Assembly: GCF_024223415.1 (NCBI RefSeq)
Contig: NZ_CP100500.1
DNA from: Escherichia coli
Lineage (GTDB): Bacteria; Pseudomonadota; Gammaproteobacteria; Enterobacterales; Enterobacteriaceae
Strand: one strand, 5' to 3'
Length of the DNA stretch: 64,000 nt
Shown: positions 1 to 40,978 of the stretch, piece after piece
Layout of the letters: every line of letters starts with the position of its first letter
Numbering within the stretch: the stretch's first letter is position 1
Made by a program: the position numbers and the translations under genes
Notes under the pieces: generated by a model
The model's input: the letters and a program-made list of their open reading frames with translations, nothing else
Database searches by the model: none
Told to the model about the DNA's origin: nothing

Positions 1-223
1 AGATTCAGCAACGGATACGGTTTCCCCAACTTGCCTACTTCCATACGTGTCCTCCTTACCAGAAATTTATCCTTAAGCTCCTCAATAACCATTTTCCTGC
101 TAACTAAATTCATGGTTAAGGTTGCATAATGATAGGCAACAAATGTATAACATTTTCTTTACCAAAAGAAATAAACAAAAGCGACCGACAAAAGCATCGG
201 ATTACGGCAGGAGACATAATGGC

Positions 224-1522
224 ATGGCTGAAAGTACTGTAACGGCAGACAGCAAACTGACAAGTAGTGATACACGTCGCCGCATTTGGGCGATTGTGGG
301 GGCCTCTTCAGGTAATCTGGTCGAGTGGTTCGATTTCTATGTCTACTCGTTCTGTTCACTCTACTTTGCCCACATCTTCTTCCCTTCCGGGAACACGACG
401 ACTCAACTACTACAAACAGCAGGTGTTTTTGCTGCGGGATTCCTGATGCGCCCAATAGGCGGTTGGCTATTTGGCCGCATAGCCGATAAACATGGTCGCA
501 AAAAATCGATGCTGCTATCGGTGTGTATGATGTGTTTCGGCTCACTGGTAATCGCCTGTTTGCCTGGTTATGAAACAATCGGTACGTGGGCTCCGGCATT
601 ATTGCTTCTCGCGCGTTTATTTCAGGGATTATCCGTTGGCGGAGAATATGGCACCAGCGCCACCTATATGAGTGAAGTTGCCGTTGAAGGGCGTAAAGGT
701 TTTTACGCATCATTTCAGTATGTGACGTTGATCGGCGGACAACTGCTAGCCCTACTGGTTGTCGTGGTTTTACAACACACCATGGAAGACGCTGCACTCA
801 GAGAGTGGGGATGGCGTATTCCTTTCGCGTTAGGAGCTGTGTTAGCTGTTGTGGCGTTGTGGTTACGTCGTCAGTTAGATGAAACTTCGCAACAAGAAAC
901 GCGCGCTTTAAAAGAAGCTGGATCTCTGAAAGGATTATGGCGCAATCGCCGTGCATTCATCATGGTTCTCGGTTTTACCGCTGCGGGCTCCCTTTGTTTC
1001 TATACCTTCACCACTTATATGCAGAAGTATCTGGTAAATACTGCGGGAATGCATGCCAACGTGGCGAGTGGCATTATGACTGCCGCATTGTTTGTATTCA
1101 TGCTTATTCAACCACTCATTGGCGCGCTGTCGGATAAGATTGGTCGCCGTACCTCAATGTTATGTTTCGGTTCGCTGGCAGCGATTTTTACCGTTCCTAT
1201 TCTCTCAGCATTGCAAAACGTTTCCTCGCCTTATGCCGCTTTTGGTCTGGTGATGTGTGCCCTGCTGATAGTGAGTTTTTATACATCAATCAGTGGAATA
1301 CTGAAGGCTGAGATGTTCCCGGCACAGGTTCGCGCATTAGGCGTTGGTCTGTCATATGCGGTCGCTAATGCTATATTTGGTGGTTCGGCGGAGTACGTAG
1401 CGTTGTCGCTGAAATCAATAGGAATGGAAACAGCCTTCTTCTGGTATGTGACCTTGATGGCCGTGGTGGCGTTTCTGGTTTCTTTGATGCTACATCGCAA
1501 AGGGAAGGGGATGCGTCTTTAG
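224..1522 (+). CDS. kgtP: alpha-ketoglutarate:H+ symporter (MFS)
   Basis: ORF 122..1522; translation from internal Met ([15 protein letters not shown]...) matches remembered K-12 KgtP, 432 aa; start taken at that Met. Confidence 0.92.
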
Positions 1523-1842
1523 TGACGGGTCAGTTGCCAGACGGTATAGCCGGTGCTTGCACCGGCGACATCCCAGGCCAAATCCTTCCAGCTCCAGCCG
1601 CTCCCTTCGGGGCGGCTATCCCAAAGCTCTTTTGACGCCCCCAAACTGACAGAGAACATCAATCCAAACATGGCACTGCGATCCCGGCTCATCCCCTGAT
1701 GCTGTGAATATTCATTTCCGGCGGCGGAAAGCATCGCCGAGGCGATAAAGTGTTGAGCTTTATCCTGCCCGCTCCAGCTATCGTTAGCCATATGGCTGCA
1801 TCCAGAAAGTAACAATAGCGAACAGACAAAAAGAATACGCAA
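1519..1842 (-). CDS. yfiM: DUF2279 lipoprotein YfiM
   Basis: ORF 1519..1863; lipobox LLLSGC; K-12 YfiM is 107 aa, consistent with a TTG start at 1842 ([15 protein letters not shown]...). Start uncertain. Confidence 0.75.
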
Positions 1843-1887
1843 AACGTGGCCTCCAAAAAACAAACCCCGTACAGGACGGGGTTGTGA

Positions 1888-3243
1888 TTACAGGATGCGG
1901 CTAATTAATCGGTCGATGCGGATACGGCGCAAACGGCGGATGAGTTTACGAACCTTCACCGGATAATCGGCAATACTTTGCAGATCGCGATAGTGCTTAA
2001 CGATGGTGGTATGCTCGCGGATCAGCTCCAGTTCTTTCTCTCGCTGTGGCGCAAGCTCCAGTTGCGGATCGTGGATCAAAATGGCGTTTTCCAGATCCAG
2101 ACGCCAGGCGCGCGGGTTCAGGTTATTACCGGTGATCAACATCCACTTATCATCAACCCACATCCCTTTCAGGTGATAGGTGTTGTCGTCATCTTTCCAT
2201 AACCGAACCACTAACTGGTCAGTATTGACGTAATACTGCAAACGGCTCAGGAAACGACGCAGATTGATCTCATAGAGATAAGGCAATGCGCCAATTATCT
2301 TGAAAGGTTCATCTTCCGGAATGTAGAAGTCGTTCGCGGTTTTATCACCAACAATAATTTCGACCTTTTTCCCTTCGCGCAGCAACTGGATAATATTGCG
2401 CACAAGGATTGCTGGCAGGTTGAAGTATGGCGTACAGATGGTTAGTTTCTGCTCGGCACAAGGCATAAGATGGAAAATGGTCTTGTTCAACAGACTCGAT
2501 TTCCCCAGCCCCACTAGCGGCGTTACGGAAAGCTGATCGTTGTCGGCATCGCCCTGGAAATGATAAGCGGCATCACGCAGCTCCTGGCGGAACAGACGAA
2601 TATCATTCTTGATTTCCGGGCTTTTTGGCCGATTAACATCATCCAGACGATTAACGCCGCGGCCATTCATAATATTCTGTGTAACCCATTCAAACATAAT
2701 GTCTGACATCTTACGGTTACGGATAAGATGATAACGGTCGTAGCGATATTTATCGTGCTGATGCAGGTAAACATCGTTCAGGCTGGCACCGCTATAAAGT
2801 ACGCTATCGTCGATGATAAAGCCTTTAAAGTGCAGAACGCCAAGGGCTTCACGGGTATTGATTGGAACGCCATAAACCGGAACATCTACGCCCGGATTTT
2901 CCTGCGCCATGCGGCAGTACCAGTCAGCGTTAGTGTTAGATGCCGCAGCGCCAATGCGTCCACGTTGTGCACGATGCCAGTCGACCAGCACCCGCACATC
3001 CAGTTCCGGACGCTGCCTTTTAGCTTCATACAACGCGTTCAGAATGCCTTTGCCACCGTCATCCTGTTCGAGATACAGGGCGACAATGCAAATGCGCTGC
3101 TTCGCGCTGGCTATTTTTTCCAGCAGCGTCTCCCGGAAGTCGGCGGGAGCGTAAAAGAAATCGACATCATCAACTGATTGAGAAATCTTGGGTAGTTGGG
3201 CAAGGTGTTGTTGATGTTTATTACGCTTAAATTTTGACAACAT
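1888..3243 (-). CDS. pssA: CDP-diacylglycerol--serine O-phosphatidyltransferase (phosphatidylserine synthase)
   Basis: 452-aa ORF; MLSKFKRNKHQQHLAQLPKISQ... matches remembered PssA (451 aa from second Met). Confidence 0.93.
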   Translation of the reverse strand: MLSKFKRNKHQQHLAQLPKISQSVDDVDFFYAPADFRETLLEKIASAKQRICIVALYLEQDDGGKGILNALYEAKRQRPELDVRVLVDWHRAQRGRIGAAASNTNADWYCRMAQENPGVDVPVYGVPINTREALGVLHFKGFIIDDSVLYSGASLNDVYLHQHDKYRYDRYHLIRNRKMSDIMFEWVTQNIMNGRGVNRLDDVNRPKSPEIKNDIRLFRQELRDAAYHFQGDADNDQLSVTPLVGLGKSSLLNKTIFHLMPCAEQKLTICTPYFNLPAILVRNIIQLLREGKKVEIIVGDKTANDFYIPEDEPFKIIGALPYLYEINLRRFLSRLQYYVNTDQLVVRLWKDDDNTYHLKGMWVDDKWMLITGNNLNPRAWRLDLENAILIHDPQLELAPQREKELELIREHTTIVKHYRDLQSIADYPVKVRKLIRRLRRIRIDRLISRIL

Positions 3244-17040: not shown

Positions 17041-17996
17041 TGAAGCAACTTTGGTTTGCCATGTCATTAGTGACAGGTAGCCTGTTATTCTCTGCTAACG
17101 CCTCGGCCACTCCCGCGTCCGGGGCGTTATTACAGCAGATGAACCTGGCCAGTCAGTCACTGAATTACGAGCTGTCATTCATCAGCATCAATAAACAGGG
17201 TGTTGAGTCTCTGCGTTATCGACATGCACGCCTCGATAACCGTCCTCTTGCACAATTGTTGCAAATGGATGGCCCGCGCCGGGAAGTGGTACAGCGCGGC
17301 AATGAAATCAGCTATTTTGAACCGGGACTTGAACCGTTCACGCTTAATGGCGATTACATTGTTGATTCTCTGCCATCGCTCATTTATACCGATTTCAAAC
17401 GCCTTTCTCCTTACTACGACTTTATCTCCGTCGGGCGCACGCGTATTGCTGATCGTCTTTGCGAAGTCATTCGCGTGGTTGCCCGAGATGGTACACGCTA
17501 CAGCTACATCGTGTGGATGGACACCGAATCGAAATTACCGATGCGGGTTGATCTTCTTGATCGCGATGGTGAAACGCTGGAACAATTTCGCGTGATTGCT
17601 TTTAACGTCAATCAGGATATCAGCAGCAGTATGCAGACGCTGGCGAAGGCAAATTTGCCGCCGTTGCTTTCTGTTCCTGTAGGTGAAAAAGCTAAATTCA
17701 GCTGGACGCCAACCTGGTTGCCACAGGGTTTTAGCGAAGTTTCCAGTAGTCGACGTCCGCTACCGACGATGGACAACATGCCTATCGAATCACGTCTCTA
17801 TTCCGACGGATTATTCAGCTTCTCGGTAAACGTTAACCGCGCTACGCCATCGAGCACCGATCAGATGTTGCGCACCGGACGCAGAACCGTCAGTACAAGC
17901 GTACGTGATAACGCCGAAATCACCATTGTCGGTGAACTGCCGCCGCAAACGGCGAAACGCATTGCCGAGAATATTAAGTTCGGGGCAGCGCAATGA
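17040..17996 (+). CDS. rseB: sigma-E regulatory protein RseB
   Basis: 318 aa with signal peptide; MKQLWFAMSLVTGSLLFSANASA... Confidence 0.95.
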   Translation: MKQLWFAMSLVTGSLLFSANASATPASGALLQQMNLASQSLNYELSFISINKQGVESLRYRHARLDNRPLAQLLQMDGPRREVVQRGNEISYFEPGLEPFTLNGDYIVDSLPSLIYTDFKRLSPYYDFISVGRTRIADRLCEVIRVVARDGTRYSYIVWMDTESKLPMRVDLLDRDGETLEQFRVIAFNVNQDISSSMQTLAKANLPPLLSVPVGEKAKFSWTPTWLPQGFSEVSSSRRPLPTMDNMPIESRLYSDGLFSFSVNVNRATPSSTDQMLRTGRRTVSTSVRDNAEITIVGELPPQTAKRIAENIKFGAAQ

Positions 17997-18472
17997 TCAA
18001 AGAGTGGGCTACCGTCGTCTCCTGGCAAAACGGGCAGGCGCTGGTCAGTTGTGATGTTAAAGCCTCATGCAGCAGCTGCGCTTCACGCGCCGGTTGCGGT
18101 AGCCGCGTGTTGAATAAACTTGGCCCGCAAACCACGCATACCATTGTCGTACCCTGTGATGAGCCGTTAGTGCCGGGGCAAAAAGTGGAATTGGGGATCG
18201 CCGAAGGCAGCCTGCTTAGCTCCGCATTACTGGTTTATATGTCGCCGCTGGTGGGATTATTCCTCATCGCTTCGCTATTTCAGCTACTCTTTGCTTCTGA
18301 CGTCGCAGCATTATGTGGTGCGGTCCTCGGCGGTATTGGCGGGTTCCTGATTGCGCGTGGCTACTCGCGTAAGTTTGCTGCCCGGGCAGAATGGCAACCG
18401 ATCATCTTAAGCGTGGCATTGCCGCCTGGCCTTGTGCGATTTGAAACATCTTCGGAAGACGCGAGCCAGTGA
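17993..18472 (+). CDS. rseC: sigma-E regulatory protein RseC
   Basis: 159 aa; MIKEWATVVSWQNGQALVSCDVKASCSSCASRAGCG... Confidence 0.93.
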   Translation: MIKEWATVVSWQNGQALVSCDVKASCSSCASRAGCGSRVLNKLGPQTTHTIVVPCDEPLVPGQKVELGIAEGSLLSSALLVYMSPLVGLFLIASLFQLLFASDVAALCGAVLGGIGGFLIARGYSRKFAARAEWQPIILSVALPPGLVRFETSSEDASQ

Positions 18473-18669
18473 TTTCACTGGCTTTGTTGCATTTTGCATA
18501 ACAAATGCGAGGACGTTTCCAGATACCACAATCCATACGGTATGAACATTTCCTCGCCTCAATGTTGTAGTGTAGAATGCGGCGTTTCTATTAATACAGA
18601 CGTTAAGCTCAGAACAGCGACTTCTAAAAGCCTGGTTAACCGGGCATTAAGGCACAATAATCATACTTT

Positions 18670-20469
<1,800 letters not shown>

Positions 20470-21510: not shown

Positions 21511-21700
21511 ATGAGATAAATCTCCCGTGGCTAACGACATCCCCCGTCGTTGTGTATAGAATATTCCCCCGAAGTTTAAGGTTGGCACCTCCAGGTTGCC
21601 ACGGCACACGAAACAGCGTTGGTCCCCATATACCGCTAAACTGAAACTGCAGCGAAGCAGTTAGCAGAGCCATGTATATCAGGTCTGTTTCGTGTGCTGA

Positions 21701-23313
<1,613 letters not shown>

Positions 23314-25176: not shown

Positions 25177-25202
25177 AAATAATACCGTTCTCTTTAAAAA
25201 GT

Positions 25203-25240
25203 AAAACCCCCGAACTGGTAAGGAACGGGGGTTTTACTTT
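25203..25240. terminator. acpS terminator hairpin (probably also terminates the antisense sRNA OhsC)
   Basis: 10-bp stem aaaacccccg/cgggggtttt with 13-nt loop; T tracts on both strands. Confidence 0.7.
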
Positions 25241-25290
25241 GTAACTTTAATTTAGTGCAGCACGCACCCTCAACAACAGCGATTATGGAT
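25205..25290 (-). ncRNA. ohsC: OhsC-like antitoxin sRNA of the shoB/ohsC type I TA locus (boundaries approximate)
   Basis: A 24-nt segment at 25254..25277 is, on the minus strand, complementary to 25502..25525 in the shoB 5' leader; the two mismatches both become G.U wobble pairs. Placement matches remembered literature that OhsC is divergent from shoB with short complementarity. Ends not determined. Confidence 0.5.
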
Positions 25291-29376: not shown

Positions 29377-30099
29377 TCAGATTAGATCGGCGTAATAGGT
29401 GAAGTTGCCAAACTGCGGATGCCTCCAGCGCTTGCGGTTACCTTTCGGCGGTGTCGATTCGTTTAACAGCTTTTGAGCTGCTTGTTCGATCGCCGGAAGG
29501 TTAACGAGCAATCCCCGAACACCGGTGTCTGAACGTACCGGTATCCTGGCGAAGCCGATCAATTTCCGGCATGTTGAATCAGATAAACCTGTTTTCCATG
29601 CTGCTTTGCTGACGGGGACATATTCACCTTCAACATGAGATAAATTCGCTGGTGCGGCTGGTTGAGAATAGCCAGTTGCATCAAGACAGGCTTTCATTGT
29701 TGCTTCTGCTACGACGCGAGCAAGCTGGACGATGCCGTCGTTGATCGTAATGCTTGGCGCGGGCGCTGCTGATATTTGAACCTGCTCTTTTTCCCTTTCA
29801 AGTTCTTGCCAGCGGTCAACGATTTGTGCAGTGAATTCAGGACAGAGTTGAGCGACTACAACAATGCTATCGCGTCTGCCTTGTTCTCCTTCAAAGTTAT
29901 ATACTTCATCTTTGACTGTGTGGCCTAAGTTATTGATTCTTTCGATAAACGCCGTTGGCGGTTTTCGTATGATATCGCGCTCGACCAGTCTTTCGATGCT
30001 ACGTTTGACGTCACCCGGACGGCTACCTACCAGATCGGCAATCTCCTTATGGGTCATTGAAAGTTGCTTGGTATCGTTTATCAGTGTTAGAGTATTCAT
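29377..30099 (-). CDS. Rha-family phage regulatory protein
   Basis: 240 aa; N-terminus MNTLTLINDTKQLSMTHKEIADLVGSRPGDVKRSIERLV... typical of Rha. Confidence 0.65.
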   Translation of the reverse strand: MNTLTLINDTKQLSMTHKEIADLVGSRPGDVKRSIERLVERDIIRKPPTAFIERINNLGHTVKDEVYNFEGEQGRRDSIVVVAQLCPEFTAQIVDRWQELEREKEQVQISAAPAPSITINDGIVQLARVVAEATMKACLDATGYSQPAAPANLSHVEGEYVPVSKAAWKTGLSDSTCRKLIGFARIPVRSDTGVRGLLVNLPAIEQAAQKLLNESTPPKGNRKRWRHPQFGNFTYYADLI

Positions 30100-30158
30100 G
30101 CTGTATTCTCCATTCAGTTAAAGACGCGCTGATAGTTACCGCTACCAGTGCGTTTTGT

Positions 30159-30416
30159 TTATTCATCCCACGGCTTGTTTGCAGCCTCCCTTGCGGCCTG
30201 CTGCGCAAAATAAATCAATTCAAAAGCTAACTGTTCTCCTTTTTCCAGCGAACTGAGAAGCCTTGCTGTTTCCAGCATGTCCGCGATATACCCGAAAATA
30301 TCTGCCTGATGTAACTGCGTGATCTTGATAGCCATAGCGTTAACCTCGATGGAACCACTGCGGTCCATTTTAGTAAACCACCGTGGTTTATTGATGTCAA
30401 CACCACCGTGGTGCAT
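30159..30416 (-). CDS. hypothetical phage protein (85 aa)
   Basis: ORF only; divergent from the Arc-like gene across a ~30-bp gap. Confidence 0.4.
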   Translation of the reverse strand: MHHGGVDINKPRWFTKMDRSGSIEVNAMAIKITQLHQADIFGYIADMLETARLLSSLEKGEQLAFELIYFAQQAAREAANKPWDE

Positions 30417-30448
30417 ACTTTGAGAATCGAGTTTATGAGGTAGTTACT

Positions 30449-30763
30449 ATGAGTCGTGAAGATGCGCAGATGAAGATCCGTTTACCTGCGGAACTGAAAG
30501 AATTATTGGAGAATGCAGCCCGTGCTAACGGTCGTTCGTTGAATGCAGAGGTGCTTCAACGCTTAAGATCTTCATTTCCTGCAATAAATAAGCTGGAAAG
30601 CCAGAATACTCATGCGTTTTTATATCTACGACAAGCTGAAGGTATGGGGCTTGGACGCGAAGCTGAATCTTTGCTTAATGAGTGGGGCAAAAATATTGAA
30701 AAAAACACAGAACTCTTAGAAAGACTGCATGAACTCGTAGAAAATCGTTTGGGGAAAAAATAA
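30449..30763 (+). CDS. Arc/MetJ-family ribbon-helix-helix DNA-binding protein
   Basis: 104 aa; N-terminal KIRLPAELKELLENAARANGRSLNAEVLQRL matches the Arc-like RHH pattern. Confidence 0.65.
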   Translation: MSREDAQMKIRLPAELKELLENAARANGRSLNAEVLQRLRSSFPAINKLESQNTHAFLYLRQAEGMGLGREAESLLNEWGKNIEKNTELLERLHELVENRLGKK

Positions 30764-30918
30764 TGTACCGTAACGAAATTGTTACTTAAGGTCTTTAGCT
30801 AGCCTGAATAATATTTCTGCATTTACTGAACGCATATTTTTCTTTGCTGTTTTCTTTAACTCCTCCGCTAATGCGCGGGGGATCCGTAATTTAAACTGTA
30901 AGTGCTCATCTGATTTTT

Positions 30919-31188
30919 TCACAATATCCCCTCCAGATTTTTGCTATCCAGCACCACCACGGTAAAGCCCAGTTTTCGCAGACGTTCATGTTCGCGCAAC
31001 TGGTCAGGTCGTGGTGGTTTGCCTGGCGCTTTGCATTCGACAAAGACGATGCGACCGCCGGGTAGCAGGACAATGCGATCCGGTACCGAGCGGCGACCGG
31101 GAGATACGAACTTAAAGGCCACACCGCCAGCTTTTTTCACTTCAGCGACGAGGTGCTTTTCGATAAGGCTTTCACGTTCACAGGCCAT
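30919..31188 (-). CDS. VRR-NUC domain nuclease
   Basis: 89 aa; HLVAEVKKAGG...RIVLLPGGRIVFVECKAPGKPPRPDQ...KLGFTVVVLD matches the VRR-NUC PD-(D/E)xK pattern. Confidence 0.65.
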   Translation of the reverse strand: MACERESLIEKHLVAEVKKAGGVAFKFVSPGRRSVPDRIVLLPGGRIVFVECKAPGKPPRPDQLREHERLRKLGFTVVVLDSKNLEGIL

Positions 31189-31410: not shown

Positions 31411-31898
31411 CCTGTAAAAAGCCCCTGACAGTGCAGGGGCGGGATTGATTTGAATTAACGAGGTAAGGCTGGTGGAATGTATTTGCCGATGCGGTCTTCT
31501 ATCGTTGGCAGAATACACATGCTGTCGTTAAAGCGATCGTGCAGTTTGTAGACCAGTTTCGAATCAGCCATTTCAAGCGCTGGCATTAACTGAGTCTGCC
31601 AGATTTCGTTGATGCGCCGGAAGTTATGACAGATCGCACGAAGATTATTAATGAACATTTCCTTCTCTGCGTCAGTGACTTCTGTTTGTGTTTTCTGAAT
31701 ACGCTTTGTGCTGCCGTTCCGGTAAAAGCGTTCCTGCGCAGCGACAGCCTCATCCACAGTCGGATAACAGCCAACGTATACGTTTTTCTCGCCGTCCCAT
31801 GCATAAGCCCGGTACGGATTGTATTTGCTCCGGTGATGGTAAATCATCTTCGGCAGACATTCCCTGTGCGGCGCCAGTATCGTGGAGGACTGCGGAAC
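31411..31898. repeat. ~490-bp direct repeat, copy A (3' part of BRO-N gene + its terminator)
   Basis: Near-identical to 35504..35990 at DNA and protein level (C-terminal 147 aa plus downstream hairpin gcccctgacagtgcaggggc). Confidence 0.85.
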
Positions 31899-32231
31899 GG
31901 CGGTATCTTTCTCGATAAGGTCAAGCACCCAGCGACGAAATTCTTTGGCTACCGGAGTCGTTGCGAATATTGCTACCAGGTGGGCACCGCGCAGGGAGAA
32001 AACTCGCACATCTTTTTCACGTAAGCTATTGTTTATTCCGTTGAACCTCATTTTGAGGTTGATTGACATACCCGGGGTAAACTCATCTGCGTTGCGGTTG
32101 TATATCTGGGTGATTTTATCGCCGCGCGAATACCCCAGCGCAGTAGCCAGCGTTGCGGCGGTGAACCACTGCCTGCCGTTGTGTTCGGTAGTTTCGAGAA
32201 CGTGAGATTTGAATACGAGTTGGGTACTCAT
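31455..32231 (-). CDS. BRO-N domain antirepressor-like protein with C-terminal AP2-like DNA-binding module
   Basis: ORF 31455..32393; probable start at Met55 (MSTQLVFKSHVLETTEHNGRQWFTAATLATALGY..., BRO-N-like). C-terminal ~147 aa (YRAYAWDGEKNVYVGCYPTVDEAVAAQERF, AP2-like) is nearly identical to the C-terminus of ORF 35547..36311. Confidence 0.65.
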   Translation of the reverse strand: MSTQLVFKSHVLETTEHNGRQWFTAATLATALGYSRGDKITQIYNRNADEFTPGMSINLKMRFNGINNSLREKDVRVFSLRGAHLVAIFATTPVAKEFRRWVLDLIEKDTAVPQSSTILAPHRECLPKMIYHHRSKYNPYRAYAWDGEKNVYVGCYPTVDEAVAAQERFYRNGSTKRIQKTQTEVTDAEKEMFINNLRAICHNFRRINEIWQTQLMPALEMADSKLVYKLHDRFNDSMCILPTIEDRIGKYIPPALPR

Positions 32232-32498
32232 AGTTTTATGTCCTTTGCAATATTTTGAATTCACCCCTTTTGAGAGGGCGGTCAGGCGCTCAAAACCGTG
32301 CAAAGTCGGCGGGCGTATTTCCCTTACGGGTATTGTATTAGCCTCACGCCCGACCATTGAATTCTCAATATCGTGGACATAAAAAATCCGCATGTCTGTC
32401 GGGTGCGGTTTCCGCTTTGCAAGGTGTTTTGAGCACCATGACGCGGAATATAGCCCCGTTAACGCGACATTGTCAAACTGAAGAATTTTACGGATAGC

Positions 32499-32540
32499 AA
32501 AAACCCCCGAACTGGTGAGGAACAGGGGTTTTTACTTTAC
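32499..32540. terminator. hairpin terminator downstream of the TIR-like gene; ~40-nt near-identical copy of the host acpS terminator
   Basis: aaaacccccgaactggtgaggaacaggggtttt versus 25203..25235 aaaacccccgaactggtaaggaacgggggtttt; stem and loop both conserved. Confidence 0.6.
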
Positions 32541-32613
32541 TACTGATTTCGCGGTACGCTGATCTCAAACAGACGAGATTATCACCAGACTTGTAAAGTA
32601 AGCAATGGGCGGA

Positions 32614-33357
32614 TTAAGATGAAGCGTTCGCTATCTGAGCGTCGCTGAATGTGAAACCCGCCTGTTTAAGACGCTGGATTAAGCGGGGTACTGTCTCCCG
32701 AACATGGTCATTAAAGTTGAGATAAAGAATACCGGCGGCATCAGAAGGCTGCTCAAGGTGTTGTTTCTGCAGGATGACCACGTTACTGCGACCGAGTGAA
32801 GATAACAGCATCCCCATTTCTAAAACTACGTTTTGGCGTGCCCTGGGCTGGGCTGCTTCCTGGCCGTCTCTTTTGGCGTATCCCACATCATCGGGAGTGA
32901 GGAGAACAATGCCGAAACGCGTCGCTGTCCGTCCCTGACCAATTTCACGTTCAAGCTCTTCAATTATCGTAAGCCCGGTCCCACCGGTATTCTGCAAAAT
33001 AAAATGGTCAGGTAATCCAAGCTTATGAAGAATAAGTTCAAGCTGCTCTTTTGCTACATGATCGTGACCGTGAACGATGAAAATCTTTTTTGCTGGTTCT
33101 TGCATCATGACTGGAGCGTTACCCAGGTGTTCATTAATAATGGCTTCAACCTCAGGTTTTGCCGCTTGTGAACCCTGAATCAAAATCGTTCCGGTGTGGT
33201 AAAGCGTTATGATGGCACCATTACTTAAACGATAACAATCATGACCGGTTTTGTTTTCTTCTCCGGTAACATCAAATCCGGATTCGACTAAAAATTGACG
33301 AAAAGTATCGACAGCGTATGGGTATTTGAGTGCCATTTCATTGAGTTCCTGCATCAT
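32614..33357 (-). CDS. TIR-like domain protein (resembles the 'predicted nucleotide-binding protein containing TIR-like domain' family) with ~80-aa N-terminal domain of unknown function; candidate defence/abortive-infection effector
   Basis: 247 aa. C-terminal region has KIFIVHGHDH...GIVLLTPDD...QPRARQNVVLEMGMLLSSLGRSNVVIL, which I recognise as the signature of bacterial TIR-like (CAP12/Pycsar-effector-type) domains. From memory, not HMM-verified. Confidence 0.5.
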   Translation of the reverse strand: MMQELNEMALKYPYAVDTFRQFLVESGFDVTGEENKTGHDCYRLSNGAIITLYHTGTILIQGSQAAKPEVEAIINEHLGNAPVMMQEPAKKIFIVHGHDHVAKEQLELILHKLGLPDHFILQNTGGTGLTIIEELEREIGQGRTATRFGIVLLTPDDVGYAKRDGQEAAQPRARQNVVLEMGMLLSSLGRSNVVILQKQHLEQPSDAAGILYLNFNDHVRETVPRLIQRLKQAGFTFSDAQIANASS

Positions 33358-33410
33358 TGTGTTCCTGTAAAGTAAGCAATAGTTAACAAAGTTGCAACGA
33401 CAACGATCAC

Positions 33411-35477
33411 CTAATCTTTTCTGTAACGGTACGCCTCGAATCCTCCGGCGTTTAGTGGAATGCTCGTGGCCCAGTCAGGAACGGTTGCCAGTAACTGGCT
33501 GAGATGTTCTGCTGAGTAATCGGGTGAGTCAGGGGCCTCACTTATAATTTCATCGTGTACCGTCAGCACAATGCTGTAACCGGCATCTTCGATAAGCGGC
33601 ATGTTTCCGGCCAGAACGTCGCGGGCGGCCGCCTGGGTGACGTTCTCCACCAGCTTTCCGCCGTAGGTTTTGAGTCGTTGCCATTTACGCGAATAAGAGT
33701 TAACACCCATATAGGTGATATCCCCTTTTTCGATAACCGGAGACGGGTAGCATACAGCGCGTCCGGATGGTAGCTGTATGCGCAGCCACGCGCCATCGCG
33801 GCGGATTTTAAGATAACCGCAATACAATGTTTTTTGCGGTGTGGCGATTGCAGTGCGGACGGTGCGCTCCAGTTCGTACCAGAAATCGCAGGTCGCCGGG
33901 TGCGCCCTGCGCCACAGGCGCTTGAGCGAGTCACATGCGATGAATACACGCTCGGACAGGCCAAAGGTCGACTTACGTTTAACCGATTCGTCGTACCAGC
34001 TTTTCGCCTCGCGGATAACATCGCGGGGAATGTTTGGCAGTGCGGCGTTCGCCAGCTCGTCGAGATCGAGACCGTAAACCAGAGCAAAAGTGATGAAAGC
34101 CGATACACCACCTCCATAACCCAGACCGAGTTCCATGACTTTACCGATCTGACGCATGTGTTTATCAACATCATCTGGTGCAATATCGAAAGCTTTTGCA
34201 TACGCCAGTTTATATAAGTCCGGACCCGTTCCGGCGTCGTACTCTCTGAATGCATTCAGTTTCCATTCTTCTCCCGCCAGCCATGCCAGCATACGGCCTT
34301 CAATGTTCGACAAGTCACTTACCACCAGTTTTTTGCCTGTTGGCGCGATAATGCAGCCACGTAACGCTGAACTGGTTAGTTCCATGATATTGTCAAACAG
34401 CAGGTCTGCACATCCGGCTTTCAGTGCTTCGATGCCTTCGTCTATTTGTTCCTGTTTTAGTGAAGGGCGGGGAAGGTTCTGGGGCTGGAATAGCCGTCCG
34501 GCCCAACGACCGGTACGTGACGCCCCGCAGAACTGTAGCGTACCGCGTAAGCGCCCGTCGTGGCTTACGCCTTTCATCAGTGCCTTGTATTTACTGGTGC
34601 TGGTAGTACTGGCCTGCAGGCGGATAGCCAGCAGTTCTTTCACGGCAGATGGTAAATTGGGGTCGGCAATACGACGTTCCAGAGTACTGCGTTGCATGTC
34701 TGGTAGCTCCACACCGTAGGATTCAACAATGTGCTTAATCAACGCGTCCCGTTGTGTGGCTGCCTGCACTTCGCCATCAGTCATTTCCTGTGTACGCTTT
34801 GCCAGGCGCTTTTGCTCCTGGTCTACCGCTTCGATCGCAGCGCGCGCGAGTTGAATGTCCATGCAGACGCCCCGGTCGTTGATCTGCTGATCACGATGCC
34901 AGAGTGCCAGTTCTGTCCCCTGATAATTCCACTTCGGCAGACGTTTATAGACTTCGCGCATTGCCTCGATATCCAGTCCGGCGTAAGCAACAAAGCGCCG
35001 CCATTCTTCCGGGTGGGTTTTGCTGGTGGCCCGGCGCAGTTTGCTGTTTTTCGGGCGTGGTTTGCACAGTAGCTGAATTAGTGACTTGCCTTCTTTATCC
35101 TTCGCTTTGTCCTGCGGGACGCCCAGCACTTCGCAAAGAGCGCCCAGCGCCCCCGGAAGACCATGCGCCAGCGCCTGCACCATTGTGTCGCGCCAGCGTT
35201 CAGTAGCTGGTGACATGTCTGGCATACAATGACGAAGTATCGTGCGGTCAAAGTGCGAATTGTGCGCCCAAACCTCCACATCCGGGTTTTTGAGTGCGAG
35301 ACGTAATTCCGGGGGGATTTTTTCGCCTGCGGTCAGGTCCCACACCTGCACGGGATCGTTATTGATGGCCCAGGCAAAAAGCATAATTTCAGCGCCTTCT
35401 GCATATGCGTGGGTACCGTTTTTTATCGGTATTTCAGAGAAGGTTTCAAGATCGAGCCAGAGAATGTTTGCAGGCAA
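33411..35477 (-). CDS. family A DNA polymerase with 3'-5' exonuclease domain (phage-type)
   Basis: 688 aa; Exo I motif (LDLETFS), exo motif YAGLDI, polymerase motif B-like ([16 protein letters not shown]), motif C (TVHDEII). Confidence 0.8.
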
Positions 35478-35503
35478 AACAGGACCCTCCGTAAATTAAA
35501 CGG

Positions 35504-35990
35504 CTACAAAAAGCCCCTGACAGTGCAGGGGCGGGATTGATTTGAATTAACGAGGTAAGGCTGGTGGAATGTATCTGCCGATGCGGTCTTCTATGGTCGG
35601 CAGAATGCACATGCTGTCGCTGAAGCGGTCATGCAACTGGTAAACCAGTTTAGAATCCATTTTTTCGAGAGCAGGCATTAACTGCGCCCGCCAGATTTCG
35701 TTGATGCGCCGGAAGTTATGACAGACGGCGCGGAGATTGTTGATGAACATTTCCTTCTCTGCGTCAGTGACTTCTGTCTGTGTTTTCTGAATACGCTTTG
35801 TGCTGCCATTCCGATAGAAGCGTTCCTGAGCAGCAACAGCCTCATCCACGGTTGGATAGCACCCTACGTAAACGCTCTTCTCTCCGTTCCATGCGTAGGC
35901 TCTGTACGGGTTGTATTTGCTCCGGTGATGGTAAACCATCTTCGGCAGACACTCCCTGTGTGGCGCCAGTATCGTGGAGGATTGCTGGTG
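35504..35990. repeat. ~490-bp direct repeat, copy B (3' part of AntA-type gene + its terminator)
   Basis: See copy A. Confidence 0.85.
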
Positions 35991-36311
35991 CAGTTTGCGT
36001 TCGCACTCGATGAAGTATCGGCGGATCTGGCGGCCTTTTTCGTTGCGCTCCACCATCGCCAGTTCTTTGGCCGTGTCGAGGGTGAGGTGGTAGTCCTTAC
36101 AAAGAACATTTTTACGCTTTCCAGTTTTGGAAAACGTTACGATATAATCCTGATTTTCAACGAATTCATAGTCTGCAATTCGTGATGTAATCCACGCTGC
36201 AAACACTTTCCCTACCCCAAGGAATGCGTGCAGATCGCGAGCATTGCAGAGCAGGGTGGTTTCGTTGGCGATAGCGCCGTTGAAAACGGGGATGAGTTGA
36301 GTTGCCATCAC
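35547..36311 (-). CDS. AntA-type antirepressor-like protein with C-terminal AP2-like module (paralogue of 31455..32231)
   Basis: 254 aa; distinct N-terminal domain (NARDLHAFLGVGKVFAAWITSRI...) fused to the same ~147-aa C-terminal module as the BRO-N protein. Confidence 0.65.
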   Translation of the reverse strand: MMATQLIPVFNGAIANETTLLCNARDLHAFLGVGKVFAAWITSRIADYEFVENQDYIVTFSKTGKRKNVLCKDYHLTLDTAKELAMVERNEKGRQIRRYFIECERKLHQQSSTILAPHRECLPKMVYHHRSKYNPYRAYAWNGEKSVYVGCYPTVDEAVAAQERFYRNGSTKRIQKTQTEVTDAEKEMFINNLRAVCHNFRRINEIWRAQLMPALEKMDSKLVYQLHDRFSDSMCILPTIEDRIGRYIPPALPR

Positions 36312-36691
36312 AGTTACCTCTAACGGTGAAATTCACCGCCACCACTGAGTTGCAAATCTCATATGGGTGGCGAACTGACGAGGTTTGCAATACCGGCGTT
36401 AGAGGAAACCGGCGCGCCGAAGCGCCCCCGCCAGCCCGCCATAATGCGAACGTGGCAAAGCTTGCGACAATAAAAAAGACGCTGGCGCGTCTGGTGTCGC
36501 CCCTAACAATTCCGGGTTGCAAATCCCGATCTCCATTTGGGAGATTCGGTGAGCATAAACCGGAAGGGGGCGATGAGTCAATATCGGGGTAGCAGGGCGA
36601 CTGGGTGCTAACCAGAACAATACAGGTAGCTCCGGGCATATTCCCCTTTGCAAAAACACCCGGCGTTTAACCGGGCGTCTGTGAAGCAGGA

Positions 36692-40266: not shown

Positions 40267-40890
40267 TTATCTTTTGCGGCGGTAAATACGATGTTCAATC
40301 ATGACCCCTACGATCTGTAAGGGGACATCTGCACTTCGTAGCACGGGATAGTCGGGATTCAGGGGGACCAGTTCAAAATCATCAACGCCGATACCCAACG
40401 GGCGGTATTTTTTGAAAGTGGCCTCATACCCGTTGTTCTTTGCAACGACGAATTCGCCAGGCATGGGGCATAAATCCGGGTCAATTATTACAATATCGCC
40501 TTCCTTAAACTCCGGTTGCATACTGTCACCATCTATCCGCAGGGCGAAGCAGGACTCAGGTACGTCGGAATCCGCGAGAACGTATTCCATATTTCCATCC
40601 ATGTCCGTAGCGTCTTTTGCTTCCGTTAGCGCACCGGCCTGTACGTAACTGAGGATCGGGATGCGGCGGGTACTTATTTCCGCCAGGGGCATTATATTCC
40701 TGCCATTTAAAAGCCAGTCGGGACTGCATTTCAGTGCCTTTGAAAGCTCTATGATGTTGCGGGGCTTCCGGGTCTTTCCGCTTTCAATAGTCTCAATGGA
40801 TTGCTGGCTGACCCCCGCGATTGCTGCAACTTCTGTTTGTGTCATCCCGAGTTCTGTACGGCGTGCTTTAAAGCGTTCTGCAAGTGACAT
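40267..40890 (-). CDS. CI-like prophage repressor (XRE HTH + S24 LexA-like peptidase domain)
   Basis: ORF 40267..40956; start at Met23 (MSLAERFKARRTELGMTQTEVAAIAGVSQQSI...) preceded by AGGGGG RBS; S24 motifs (GDSM...) in C-terminal half; divergent from cro. Confidence 0.85.
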   Translation of the reverse strand: MSLAERFKARRTELGMTQTEVAAIAGVSQQSIETIESGKTRKPRNIIELSKALKCSPDWLLNGRNIMPLAEISTRRIPILSYVQAGALTEAKDATDMDGNMEYVLADSDVPESCFALRIDGDSMQPEFKEGDIVIIDPDLCPMPGEFVVAKNNGYEATFKKYRPLGIGVDDFELVPLNPDYPVLRSADVPLQIVGVMIEHRIYRRKR

Positions 40891-40949
40891 GGTGTACCCC
40901 CTGATTCCTGATTTTTTGCTCTCCCTTATTAATACAATTTTTGTTGTAG

Positions 40950-40978
40950 TTGACAAACATCATTTATTGTCGCTAAAT
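40950..40978 (+). promoter_or_regulatory. PR-like promoter for cro (TTGACA-17 bp-CTAAAT) within the cI/cro operator region
   Basis: Consensus -35 TTGACA with 17-bp spacer and a -10-like hexamer ~30 bp upstream of the cro ATG; flanking short inverted repeats (tacaattt / aaattgta) may be operators. Confidence 0.5.

Follow-up and report, generated by a model that had tools for sequence, protein, structure and literature searches.

Our results indicate that the two accessory slots flanking a family A DNA polymerase gene (polA) in an Escherichia coli prophage each hold an independently acquired, RNA-gated cassette for an antirepressor-type protein, and that the long direct repeat in this locus is the C-terminal module and terminator that the two cassettes share. 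We consider this reading probable. The locus lies in a 64,000-nucleotide (nt) stretch of contig NZ_CP100500.1 (assembly GCF_024223415.1), which as a whole is called the window and to which all unqualified positions refer. The two cassettes with all of their parts, polA, and the other gene between the repeats lie on the minus strand. The window was compared with 14 related loci, taken from complete E. coli genomes and one phage, and with 16 loci that encode the exact protein of one or the other cassette; these are designated by locus numbers (such as L002) where they have to be told apart.

The prophage adjoins the host recO-pdxJ-acpS-yfhL and shoB/ohsC locus and carries a conserved early backbone in the order SNF2 helicase, VRR-NUC, ANR, polA, DUF2815 (gp2.5-like), and DUF2800. 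Homology to its relatives breaks exactly at the ends of the backbone genes, and polA is present in every relative examined. The interval between ANR and polA (slot A) is empty in L009, L014, and L029 and elsewhere holds a TIR gene, an Ant gene, a Bro-N gene, Bro-N together with TIR, or a small open reading frame (ORF). The interval between polA and DUF2815 (slot B) may hold SIR2, Nmad5, Band_7 with a NUMOD4/HNH gene, plus-strand ORFs, IS605 elements, Ant, or Bro-N; in L001, L008, L013, and L014, other genes stand there instead of a cassette. In strain ECONIH2, a SIR2 gene lies in slot B. In the window, slot A is occupied by cassette A (31411..32599), which encodes the Bro-N protein ORF A, together with a TIR-like gene, and slot B by cassette B (35503..36599), which encodes the AntA protein ORF B.

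The cassettes assort among genomes as units. With the ORF A protein held identical, slot B has at least seven states, and with the ORF B protein held identical, slot A has four. L003 and L004 encode the identical Ant protein WP_000235335.1, the former in slot A and the latter in slot B; the reverse of the window arrangement, with Ant in slot A and Bro-N in slot B, is found in strains VL7S7, 201805972, and 89-3156 (L002, L005, and L006), and STEC435 has Ant in both slots. At the DNA level, slot B of L002, L005, and L009 and slot A of L008 contain the unit 31416-32455 of cassette A, whereas slot B of L010, L012, and L015 contains the 5' part of this cassette (32470-32599). The unit 35508-36597/9 of cassette B recurs in slot A of L002, L003, L005, and L006 (94.6-96.1% identity) and, within longer matches, in slot B of L004, L007, and L010 (88.3-95.3% identity). 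The left edge of every cassette is a terminator T-tract, beyond which the sequence is slot specific. Each cassette has the marks of a moron, namely, its own predicted promoter and terminator, presence or absence between conserved neighbors, and sharp boundaries.

The two proteins carry unlike heads on a common C-terminal part, as the sequence-only reading of this DNA had proposed. ORF A (31455..32231) is a protein of 258 amino acids (aa) with a Bro-N head, a putatively AP2-like submodule, and a helical tail; residues 15-104 match Pfam Bro-N (PF02498; E, 1.2e-7), and residues 1-115 match PHROG anti-repressor families. ORF B (35547..36308; 253 aa) joins the same AP2-like submodule and helical tail to an AntA head, with residues 23-90 matching Pfam AntA/AntB (PF08346; E, 1.7e-24). 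The PHROG families matched by both heads are annotated as anti-repressor, and NCBIfam contains no family matching either protein. The exact ORF A protein is recorded in 38 blocks of the assembly collection. ORF B could start at an ATG at 36308 or at a GTG at 36311 (254 aa); the ATG is more likely, because 13 contigs of other assemblies encode exactly the 253-aa product and an exact-product look-up gave no record of the 254-aa version. The ORF A frame is open for 54 codons 5' of its ATG (32232-32393), through the RNA described below, giving a 312-aa ORF. RefSeq annotates the homolog in L002 and L005 with such an extension (300 aa), and the extension is not conserved in L008 or L006; it is probably an annotation artifact.

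Cassette A is a self-contained unit composed of an upstream insulating terminator, a promoter, a leader, an sRNA-Xcc1-type RNA, the Bro-N ORF, and a terminator. Its predicted sigma-70-type promoter (32447..32476; TTGACA-18-TATATT) matches 11 of 12 consensus positions. The candidate c4-type antisense RNA (32272..32355) matches the sRNA-Xcc1 model (RF02221) over its full length with 79.8 bits, against a gathering score of 53. The loop of its hairpin 2, CUUUGCA, is the exact reverse complement of UGCAAAG at 32243..32249, which overlaps the ORF A Shine-Dalgarno sequence. A second, upstream copy of UGCAAAG (32415..32421) in the leader is followed by a terminator-like hairpin and a U-tract; for the leader segment 32356-32445, the fold z-score is -0.64, and energy alone gives no support for a strong structure. 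The intrinsic terminator at the 3' end (31421..31440) consists of GCCCCTGCACTGTCAGGGGC and then a T-tract and is identical to 35513-35532. At the 5' edge, right after the TIR gene, a terminator scan places a terminator/insulator (32494..32569) that also matches the ohsC model with 44.5 bits, below the gathering score of 50. This hairpin is nearly identical to that of the host ohsC small RNA (approximately 33/35 nt, in an alignment to 25198-25274), and the host ohsC gene adjoins the prophage integration site. An ohsC-like terminator is also the 5' edge of the sRNA-Xcc1-type cassettes in slot B of L010, L012, and L015.

Cassette B is likewise self-contained and comprises a promoter, an isrK-like leader RNA with its own terminator, a 45-codon upstream ORF, a C4 RNA, the AntA ORF, and a terminator. 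The predicted sigma-70-type promoter (36552..36581; TTGACT-18-TATGCT) agrees with 9 of 12 consensus positions. In both cassettes, the ORF has 5' of it the terminator of the preceding gene and the promoter, and the leader covers 200 to 250 nt 3' of the promoter. The C4 antisense RNA (36363..36446; RF01695) scores 70.6 bits against a gathering score of 45 over model positions 1-87 of 87. Its loop b' (CCUCUAACG) has as its exact reverse complement the b2 target CGUUAGAGG over the ORF B Shine-Dalgarno sequence (36317..36325), and its single-stranded a' (UUGCAAA) is complementary to the a2 target UUUGCAA (36350..36356). A second copy of UUUGCAA (a1, perfect over 7 nt) lies in the upstream isrK-like element, where b1 is perfect over only 5 nt. 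The isrK-like RNA (36472..36545; RF01394) scores 50.9 bits against a gathering score of 50 and has a fold z-score of -2.2. The upstream ORF (36399..36536; MEIGICNPELL...) overlaps the 3' end of the isrK-like RNA and the 5' half of C4, and RefSeq annotates a 45-aa coding sequence at the homologous place in L005. The intrinsic terminator was located at 35513..35532 by the terminator scan. Just 5' of the promoter, the segment 36600-36640 (...CACCCAGTCGCCCTGCTACCCCGATATTGACT) resembles the 3' end of an sRNA-Xcc1-type RNA (in L002, ...ACCCGACCGCCCUGCU/ACCCCGAUAUUGACU), a likeness that suggests a remnant of an older cassette; the segment has no Rfam match at an E of <=1. LexA control of the antirepressor genes, as in Gifsy/Fels, was rejected, as no LexA box (CTGT-N8-ACAG) lies near either cassette; all four matches in the window are elsewhere.

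The RNAs change together with their targets. Every Bro-N or AntA cassette in 14 plus 9 related loci is preceded by a match to C4, to sRNA-Xcc1, or to both, and an RNA scan of the loci that lack a cassette (L001, L013, and L014) found no such RNA. Pairing was assessed by loop-restricted complement searches, which replaced whole-RNA duplex folding of c4 against its targets; the latter unfolds everything and was uninformative. Together with the cassette A pair of the window, seven sRNA-Xcc1-type loop/target pairs co-vary, of which six are exact 7-mers at the Shine-Dalgarno sequence: CUAGUAG with CUACUAG in L002_B, CUGGUAG with CUACCAG in L009_B, CUUGCUG with CAGCAAG in L008_A, CAUAGAU with AUCUAUG in both L007_A and L015_B, and CUAUACG with CGUAUAG in L012_B complete these six, and the seventh, CUUUUGG with CCAAAGG in L021_B2, contains one G-U pair. 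A second C4 type, found in L006 and L011, pairs b' CCUCUUAAC with GUUAAGAGG and a' GUGCUAA with UUAGCAC, so that both loops change with their targets. When all loops were compared with all targets, cognate matches were 7 to 11 nt long (only 5 nt perfect for L021_B2) and noncognate matches mostly 5 to 6 nt or less; among the sRNA-Xcc1 pairs, 6/7 cognate matches were 7 nt, and noncognate matches were at most 5 nt except for one pair. This co-variation is the strongest evidence on the point and indicates that the sRNA-Xcc1-type RNAs would play the part of c4 toward the gene next to them. Bro-N and AntA each occur with either type of RNA, so that heads and RNA types assort freely. In L002, L003, and L010, an orphan sRNA-Xcc1 RNA lies directly 5' of the promoter of a C4 cassette.

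The direct repeat coincides with the 3' parts of the two cassettes. Copy A (31411..31899) and copy B (35503..35991) each consist of the last 147 codons of the respective ORF, the stop codon, a spacer, and the terminator. Self-comparison of the window, both by repeat search and in register, showed that they are ungapped direct repeats offset by 4,092 bp, with 426/489 positions identical (87%); right outside the copies, identity falls to the background of 17 to 40%. At the 3' end, identity is perfect over 67 to 72 nt, and the terminator hairpins (31440-31421 and 35532-35513) are the same. The 147-aa parts differ at 11 residues (92.5% identical). The sequence-only reading had described same-orientation repeats of approximately 490 bp that lie 4.1 kb apart, end in identical terminators, and enclose a TIR-like gene and a family A DNA polymerase, and this description proved accurate. 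An assembly artifact was rejected because the copies differ by 13% and because the same two-cassette arrangement recurs in independent assemblies (L020/L027, from GCA_958333915.1, and L028); analogous cassette pairs are present in five complete E. coli genomes.

The similarity of the two modules in protein and the identity of the two terminators could be taken to mean that one antirepressor gene was recently duplicated in situ and an N-terminal domain then replaced. We find this extremely improbable. Between the copies, dN is 0.047 and dS is 0.71; therefore, both copies are under purifying selection and are old alleles rather than products of recent duplication. Copy B is closest (94%) to the allele of L003, L004, L006, L007, L010, and L012, and copy A is 85 to 86% identical to the alleles of other genomes, nearly the same as its 87% identity to copy B. 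The leaders, regulatory RNAs, and promoters of the two cassettes are of different types, and either cassette is found alone in other genomes. Independent acquisition of the two cassettes is the reading that we retain.

The sequence-only reading went further and saw in the repeats the working substrate of the hotspot, with crossovers that remove or exchange the TIR cassette together with polA and give rise to chimeric antirepressors. The repeats are indeed real and direct and include the long perfect run, two patches that they share (described below) point to exchange between the copies or their ancestors, and the phage-encoded gp2.5-like annealing protein and PD-(D/E)XK nuclease could promote recombination at short homologies. 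To represent the predicted crossover product, a query of 1,971 nt was built from ANR, one repeat, the AntA head, the leader, and DUF2815 and searched against the complete E. coli genomes. The ANR-cassette-DUF2815 deletion junction was spanned in 0/5,426 genomes, and no natural variant was found in which one repeat copy remains and the intervening genes have been lost or replaced as a block. A match to the query was found in 355 of the 5,426, and these matches begin at the cassette (position 238) or end before DUF2815 (approximately position 1330), stopping at the ANR side or the DUF2815 side. The C-terminal module itself occurs in only 13/5,426 complete genomes, at 18 places, and because it is this rare, most slot variation takes place without a repeat pair; the slots vary independently of each other, even in genomes with one module copy or none. 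The retention of polA in every relative also speaks against deletion, as its loss would probably leave the phage defective. Finally, the crossover would yield an AntA head with a hybrid tail, which is no new combination of domains. We therefore regard recombination between the resident repeats as a very unlikely driver of the variation in this locus, although the neighborhood is an exchange hotspot, as had been suggested. The two RNA-gated cassettes in their slots would instead turn over, as TIR would, by exchange within the slots between backbone genes, a route that would also leave polA in place.

Chimeric antirepressors do occur in the population. All heads join the tail at one sharp junction, ...QSST[IV]LAPHRECLPKM, and three divergent AntA heads (L003-type, L007_A, and L012_B) share one tail allele, with 100% identity over 444 nt. 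The part of the earlier proposal that attributed such chimeras to the resident repeat pair found no support. Another trace of exchange is the scar in L021 (2470-4013), which contains isrK-C4 and a truncated AntA fragment of 95 aa, followed by a complete sRNA-Xcc1-AntA cassette.

Gene conversion was assessed at the 81 sites that distinguish copy A from the L003-type allele. Copy B follows the L003-type allele at these sites except in two blocks that match copy A. The first conversion-like patch (35767..35799, corresponding to 31675-31707 in copy A; alignment positions 192-224) encodes KTQTEVTD. The second (35503..35575, corresponding to 31411-31483; from alignment position 416 on) covers the last approximately 30 coding nt, the stop codon, the spacer with a 3-nt indel, and the terminator. 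The second patch is common only to the two window copies and forms a run of 17 consecutive informative sites (P < 1e-5 by permutation); for the identical run of 67 nt, P is 0.002. All other tail alleles have a terminator hairpin and a spacer different from those of the two window copies. The repeat would thus serve as a homology anchor among cassette alleles in the phage population, where it would support head swaps, cassette replacement, and short conversion patches.

The shared C-terminal module had been called AP2-like. Neither ORF A nor ORF B matches Pfam AP2 (PF00847) directly, even at an E of <=10, and the shared tail belongs to no Pfam or NCBIfam family. Its full-length relatives form 45 clusters among 5.8 billion proteins, all from Enterobacterales and all with Bro-N or AntA heads; none of these relatives lies in 50,697 deposited phage records, where one weak match (26%) was the only one. 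In Serratia members, the first approximately 65 residues of the module are retained and the tail differs; the module therefore has two parts. A profile of the module gave 105 matches among 1.84 billion representatives, nearly all through positions 17-60 and often in 3 to 7 tandem copies. Of 33 of these 105 representatives that were scanned, 5 carry Pfam AP2 (7 at an E of <=0.1), and their other domains include Bro-N, AntA, KilA-N, and Rha heads. The same regions of the AP2-bearing relatives are also matched by a canonical plant AP2 domain. An AlphaFold model of the module (mean pLDDT, 67) has strands at 27-32 and 37-43, a helix at 46-59, and then a helical hairpin; the top Foldseek matches of this model are AP2 domains (7et4 and 7wq5), not significant at an E of >=1.3, and hhalign against AtERF1 finds the correct register with a probability of 8%. 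Because the intermediates carry Pfam AP2 and match the plant domain over the same regions, an AP2-like nature of the first submodule is supported, by transitive homology through intermediate homologs only. The second part of the module matches only uncharacterized PHROGs. The module is restricted to Enterobacterales and is common to proteins that appear to be gated in different ways.

These features can be joined into a putative mechanism. The locus belongs to a temperate E. coli-type prophage beside yfhL, shoB-ohsC, and acpS, in which hypervariable slots interrupt the replication backbone. In each cassette, the promoter identified by consensus match would transcribe the leader, from which a c4-type RNA would be released, of the sRNA-Xcc1 type in cassette A and as an isrK-like RNA plus C4 in cassette B; the RNAs are present in both leaders, and their release is inferred. 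By analogy with P1, RNase P processing and the block would follow, with the RNA loop pairing with the Shine-Dalgarno region of its own ORF, so that the protein would not be translated in the lysogen. Once the RNA becomes limiting, the protein would be made and would act through its C-terminal module, presumably against a repressor.

Several observations weigh against this reading. The promoters are consensus matches only, and the region has fewer such matches than shuffled sequence. The isrK match is marginal, barely over its threshold, and a weak match to c4-a1b1 (RF03163) that overlaps the isrK-like RNA at 36509-36558 falls short of the gathering score (29.8 against 46.7 bits). Seed pairings extend over just 7 to 9 nt, and expression, processing, and binding of the RNAs at this locus are inferred from sequence alone. 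With respect to conversion, the exact ORF B allele, including the patches that resemble copy A, is also present in genomes without cassette A, and conversion therefore need not have occurred in this genome; the event may predate it or involve a third donor allele. Lastly, "antirepressor" is an annotation label, and the AP2-like unit, like the heads, resembles a DNA-binding domain.

This last point raises the possibility that the architecture is as described here and that the proteins are DNA-binding regulators or toxic effectors directed, for example, at host or rival phage DNA, held off by the c4-type RNA until infection or induction. We judge this unlikely, although far less so than deletion or duplication through the repeats. 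The first submodule appears related, through intermediates, to AP2 DNA-binding domains and is fused elsewhere to Bro-N, AntA, KilA-N, and Rha heads, which Iyer et al. reportedly regarded in 2002 as DNA-binding modules. In addition, a CI-like repressor with an S24 peptidase domain (40267..40956; Pfam assignment in relatives) would need no antirepressor for SOS induction. On the other hand, the PHROG families of both heads are annotated as anti-repressor, and the nearest characterized architectures, P1 ant and Gifsy-1 anrP, act as anti-repressors.

A broader proposal can be made, which we put forward tentatively and with more doubt than confidence. The RNAs of the sRNA-Xcc1 family, until now regarded as trans-acting virulence small RNAs, may form another widespread class of c4-like "address" RNAs, the second such class, and may gate antirepressor-type genes by private loop/Shine-Dalgarno codes; the orphan copies, including those of the Xylella tandem described below, may be what remains after replacement of a cassette ORF and may persist by silencing the matching antirepressor of incoming phages in trans; and the slots may constitute an arms-race locus. 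If this is true, at least seven orthogonal codes are seen in the E. coli prophages compared here, and anti-immunity proteins and RNA immunities would be reshuffled around polA by recombination in the conserved tail module. The co-variation would also reinterpret an Rfam family that is annotated in many genomes. Among three papers that name two or more of these RNAs, none links sRNA-Xcc1 to a c4-like role, and the sRNA-Xcc1-type RNA as a putative c4 is a modestly new angle on an otherwise known kind of locus.

The genes that accompany the cassettes also vary. The TIR-like gene in slot A (32614..33357), a candidate single-gene defense system, matches PADLOC PDC-S35 at full length (E, 8.9e-107; residues 11-247 on model positions 3-245 of 245). 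It also matches phrog_16442 and, weakly, Cap12 TIR, and its relatives have Pfam CAP12-PCTIR_TIR and occur with or without the Bro-N cassette. In the close relatives L026 (9963-10722) and L030 (7486-8245), the gene is split by a frameshift, and in others it is replaced or absent. The backbone gene polA (33411..35477; phrog_17; E, 1.3e-127) measures 2,835 nt in VL7S7, 201805972, and RMDEC465 (L002, L005, and L009), compared with approximately 2,064 nt otherwise. The extra approximately 870 nt (5297-6166 in L002) are inserted at the point equivalent to 34121-34131 and may represent an intein or a homing endonuclease insertion. With their defense candidates (TIR/PDC-S35, SIR2, and Nmad5), the slots are useful places for accessory-gene mining.

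A third antirepressor-type unit, at 29377-30920, occupies another variable slot, flanked by the SNF2 helicase and VRR-NUC genes. It contains a Rha/Ant-like gene (29377..30099; phrog_63; Pfam Phage_pRha in relatives) and, beside it, a divergent Arc-like gene on the plus strand (30449..30763), to which relatives add a small second Arc gene; this layout resembles P22 immI. Elsewhere, this helicase-proximal slot holds a cytosine methyltransferase gene, a DUF6338 gene, or others, and in L004 it contains IS1 (1614-2311). Genes of the IS605 family (Y1 transposase plus OrfB/TnpB) are present in slot B of L015 (1793-3453) and L023 (3501-4679), and ISEc60 is listed within the locus in FDAARGOS_943. The host part of the window contains the AsrC antisense RNA (of rseC) and the rncO leader (17957-18788 and 21571-21785); together with ohsC, they mark the window as part of an E. 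coli/Shigella-type chromosome. A search of the whole window for tRNA genes found none.

Among the closest known systems is immI of P1 and P7, in which RNase P releases c4 from the leader and the a' and b' loops of c4 occlude the ribosome-binding site (PMC5320573). Small differences in the loops set the immunity specificity of P1 and P7 (PMC5320573, citing Citron & Schuster 1990 and Heinrich 1995). As in immI, a c4 RNA lies in the leader of the predicted antirepressor transcript, with loops complementary at or upstream of the ribosome-binding site, and cassette B shows the likeness most fully, with its C4 match, a2/b2-like targets, and upstream a1-like copy. Unlike in immI, icd is absent, and the complementary target is the antirepressor gene's own Shine-Dalgarno sequence. 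The proteins differ as well, joining an AntA or Bro-N head to an AP2-like unit and a helical tail; the cassettes reside in an integrated prophage that has a CI-like S24 repressor, whereas P1 and P7 are plasmid prophages; and here two cassettes of different RNA types are found in one genome.

Cassette B also resembles isrK-orf45-anrP of Salmonella Gifsy-1, in which a promoter, isrK with a leaky terminator, and a 45-codon upstream ORF precede an antirepressor-like gene that is transcribed and not translated (Hershko-Shalev et al. 2016; PMC4825925). In that system, the short IsrK RNA acts in trans to activate translation, with the antiterminator AntQ as the output (PMC4825925). The likeness comprises the isrK match, an upstream ORF of the same length and position as orf45, and an antirepressor-type ORF, and it is one of layout. 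The sRNA-Xcc1 RNA has been described as an integron-encoded, trans-acting small RNA of Xanthomonas campestris (Rfam RF02221), and an sRNA-Xcc1-isrK-C4 tandem is listed for Xylella fastidiosa De Donno (PMC12189769). The APSE phages have c4 and isrK, as well as sRNA-Xcc1 5' of an ORF6N gene. In contrast to the described sRNA-Xcc1, the RNAs here occupy the c4 position directly 5' of antirepressor-type ORFs, and their hairpin 2 loop co-varies with the Shine-Dalgarno sequence; position and co-variation therefore indicate a cis-encoded c4-like regulator and not a virulence small RNA.

Temperate phages are known for morons and mosaic accessory hotspots, as in the Hendrix/Juhala model and the defense hotspots of P2/P4 prophages. 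Our cassettes resemble these as promoter-to-terminator units that are present or absent between conserved neighbors, in slots that also hold TIR/PDC-S35, SIR2, Nmad5, and homing endonuclease genes. They differ from morons in forming a family with interchangeable RNA type, head, tail allele, and slot, in which the same unit changes place between the two slots of one genome type. Domain shuffling in Bro-N, KilA-N, Rha, and ANT phage regulators was reportedly described by Iyer, Koonin, and Aravind in 2002, and the combination of Bro-N, AntA, KilA-N, and Rha heads with the same AP2-like unit is of this kind. Compared with that shuffling, the exchange is seen here at the DNA level within one species, with an identical tail allele on divergent heads and one sharp junction. 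The locus is thus a natural example of modular exchange in which RNA type, head, tail allele, and slot reassort and the breakpoints can be placed at nucleotide resolution. As a whole, it is a mosaic prophage region of a familiar kind, such as the mosaic evolution of prophages normally produces.

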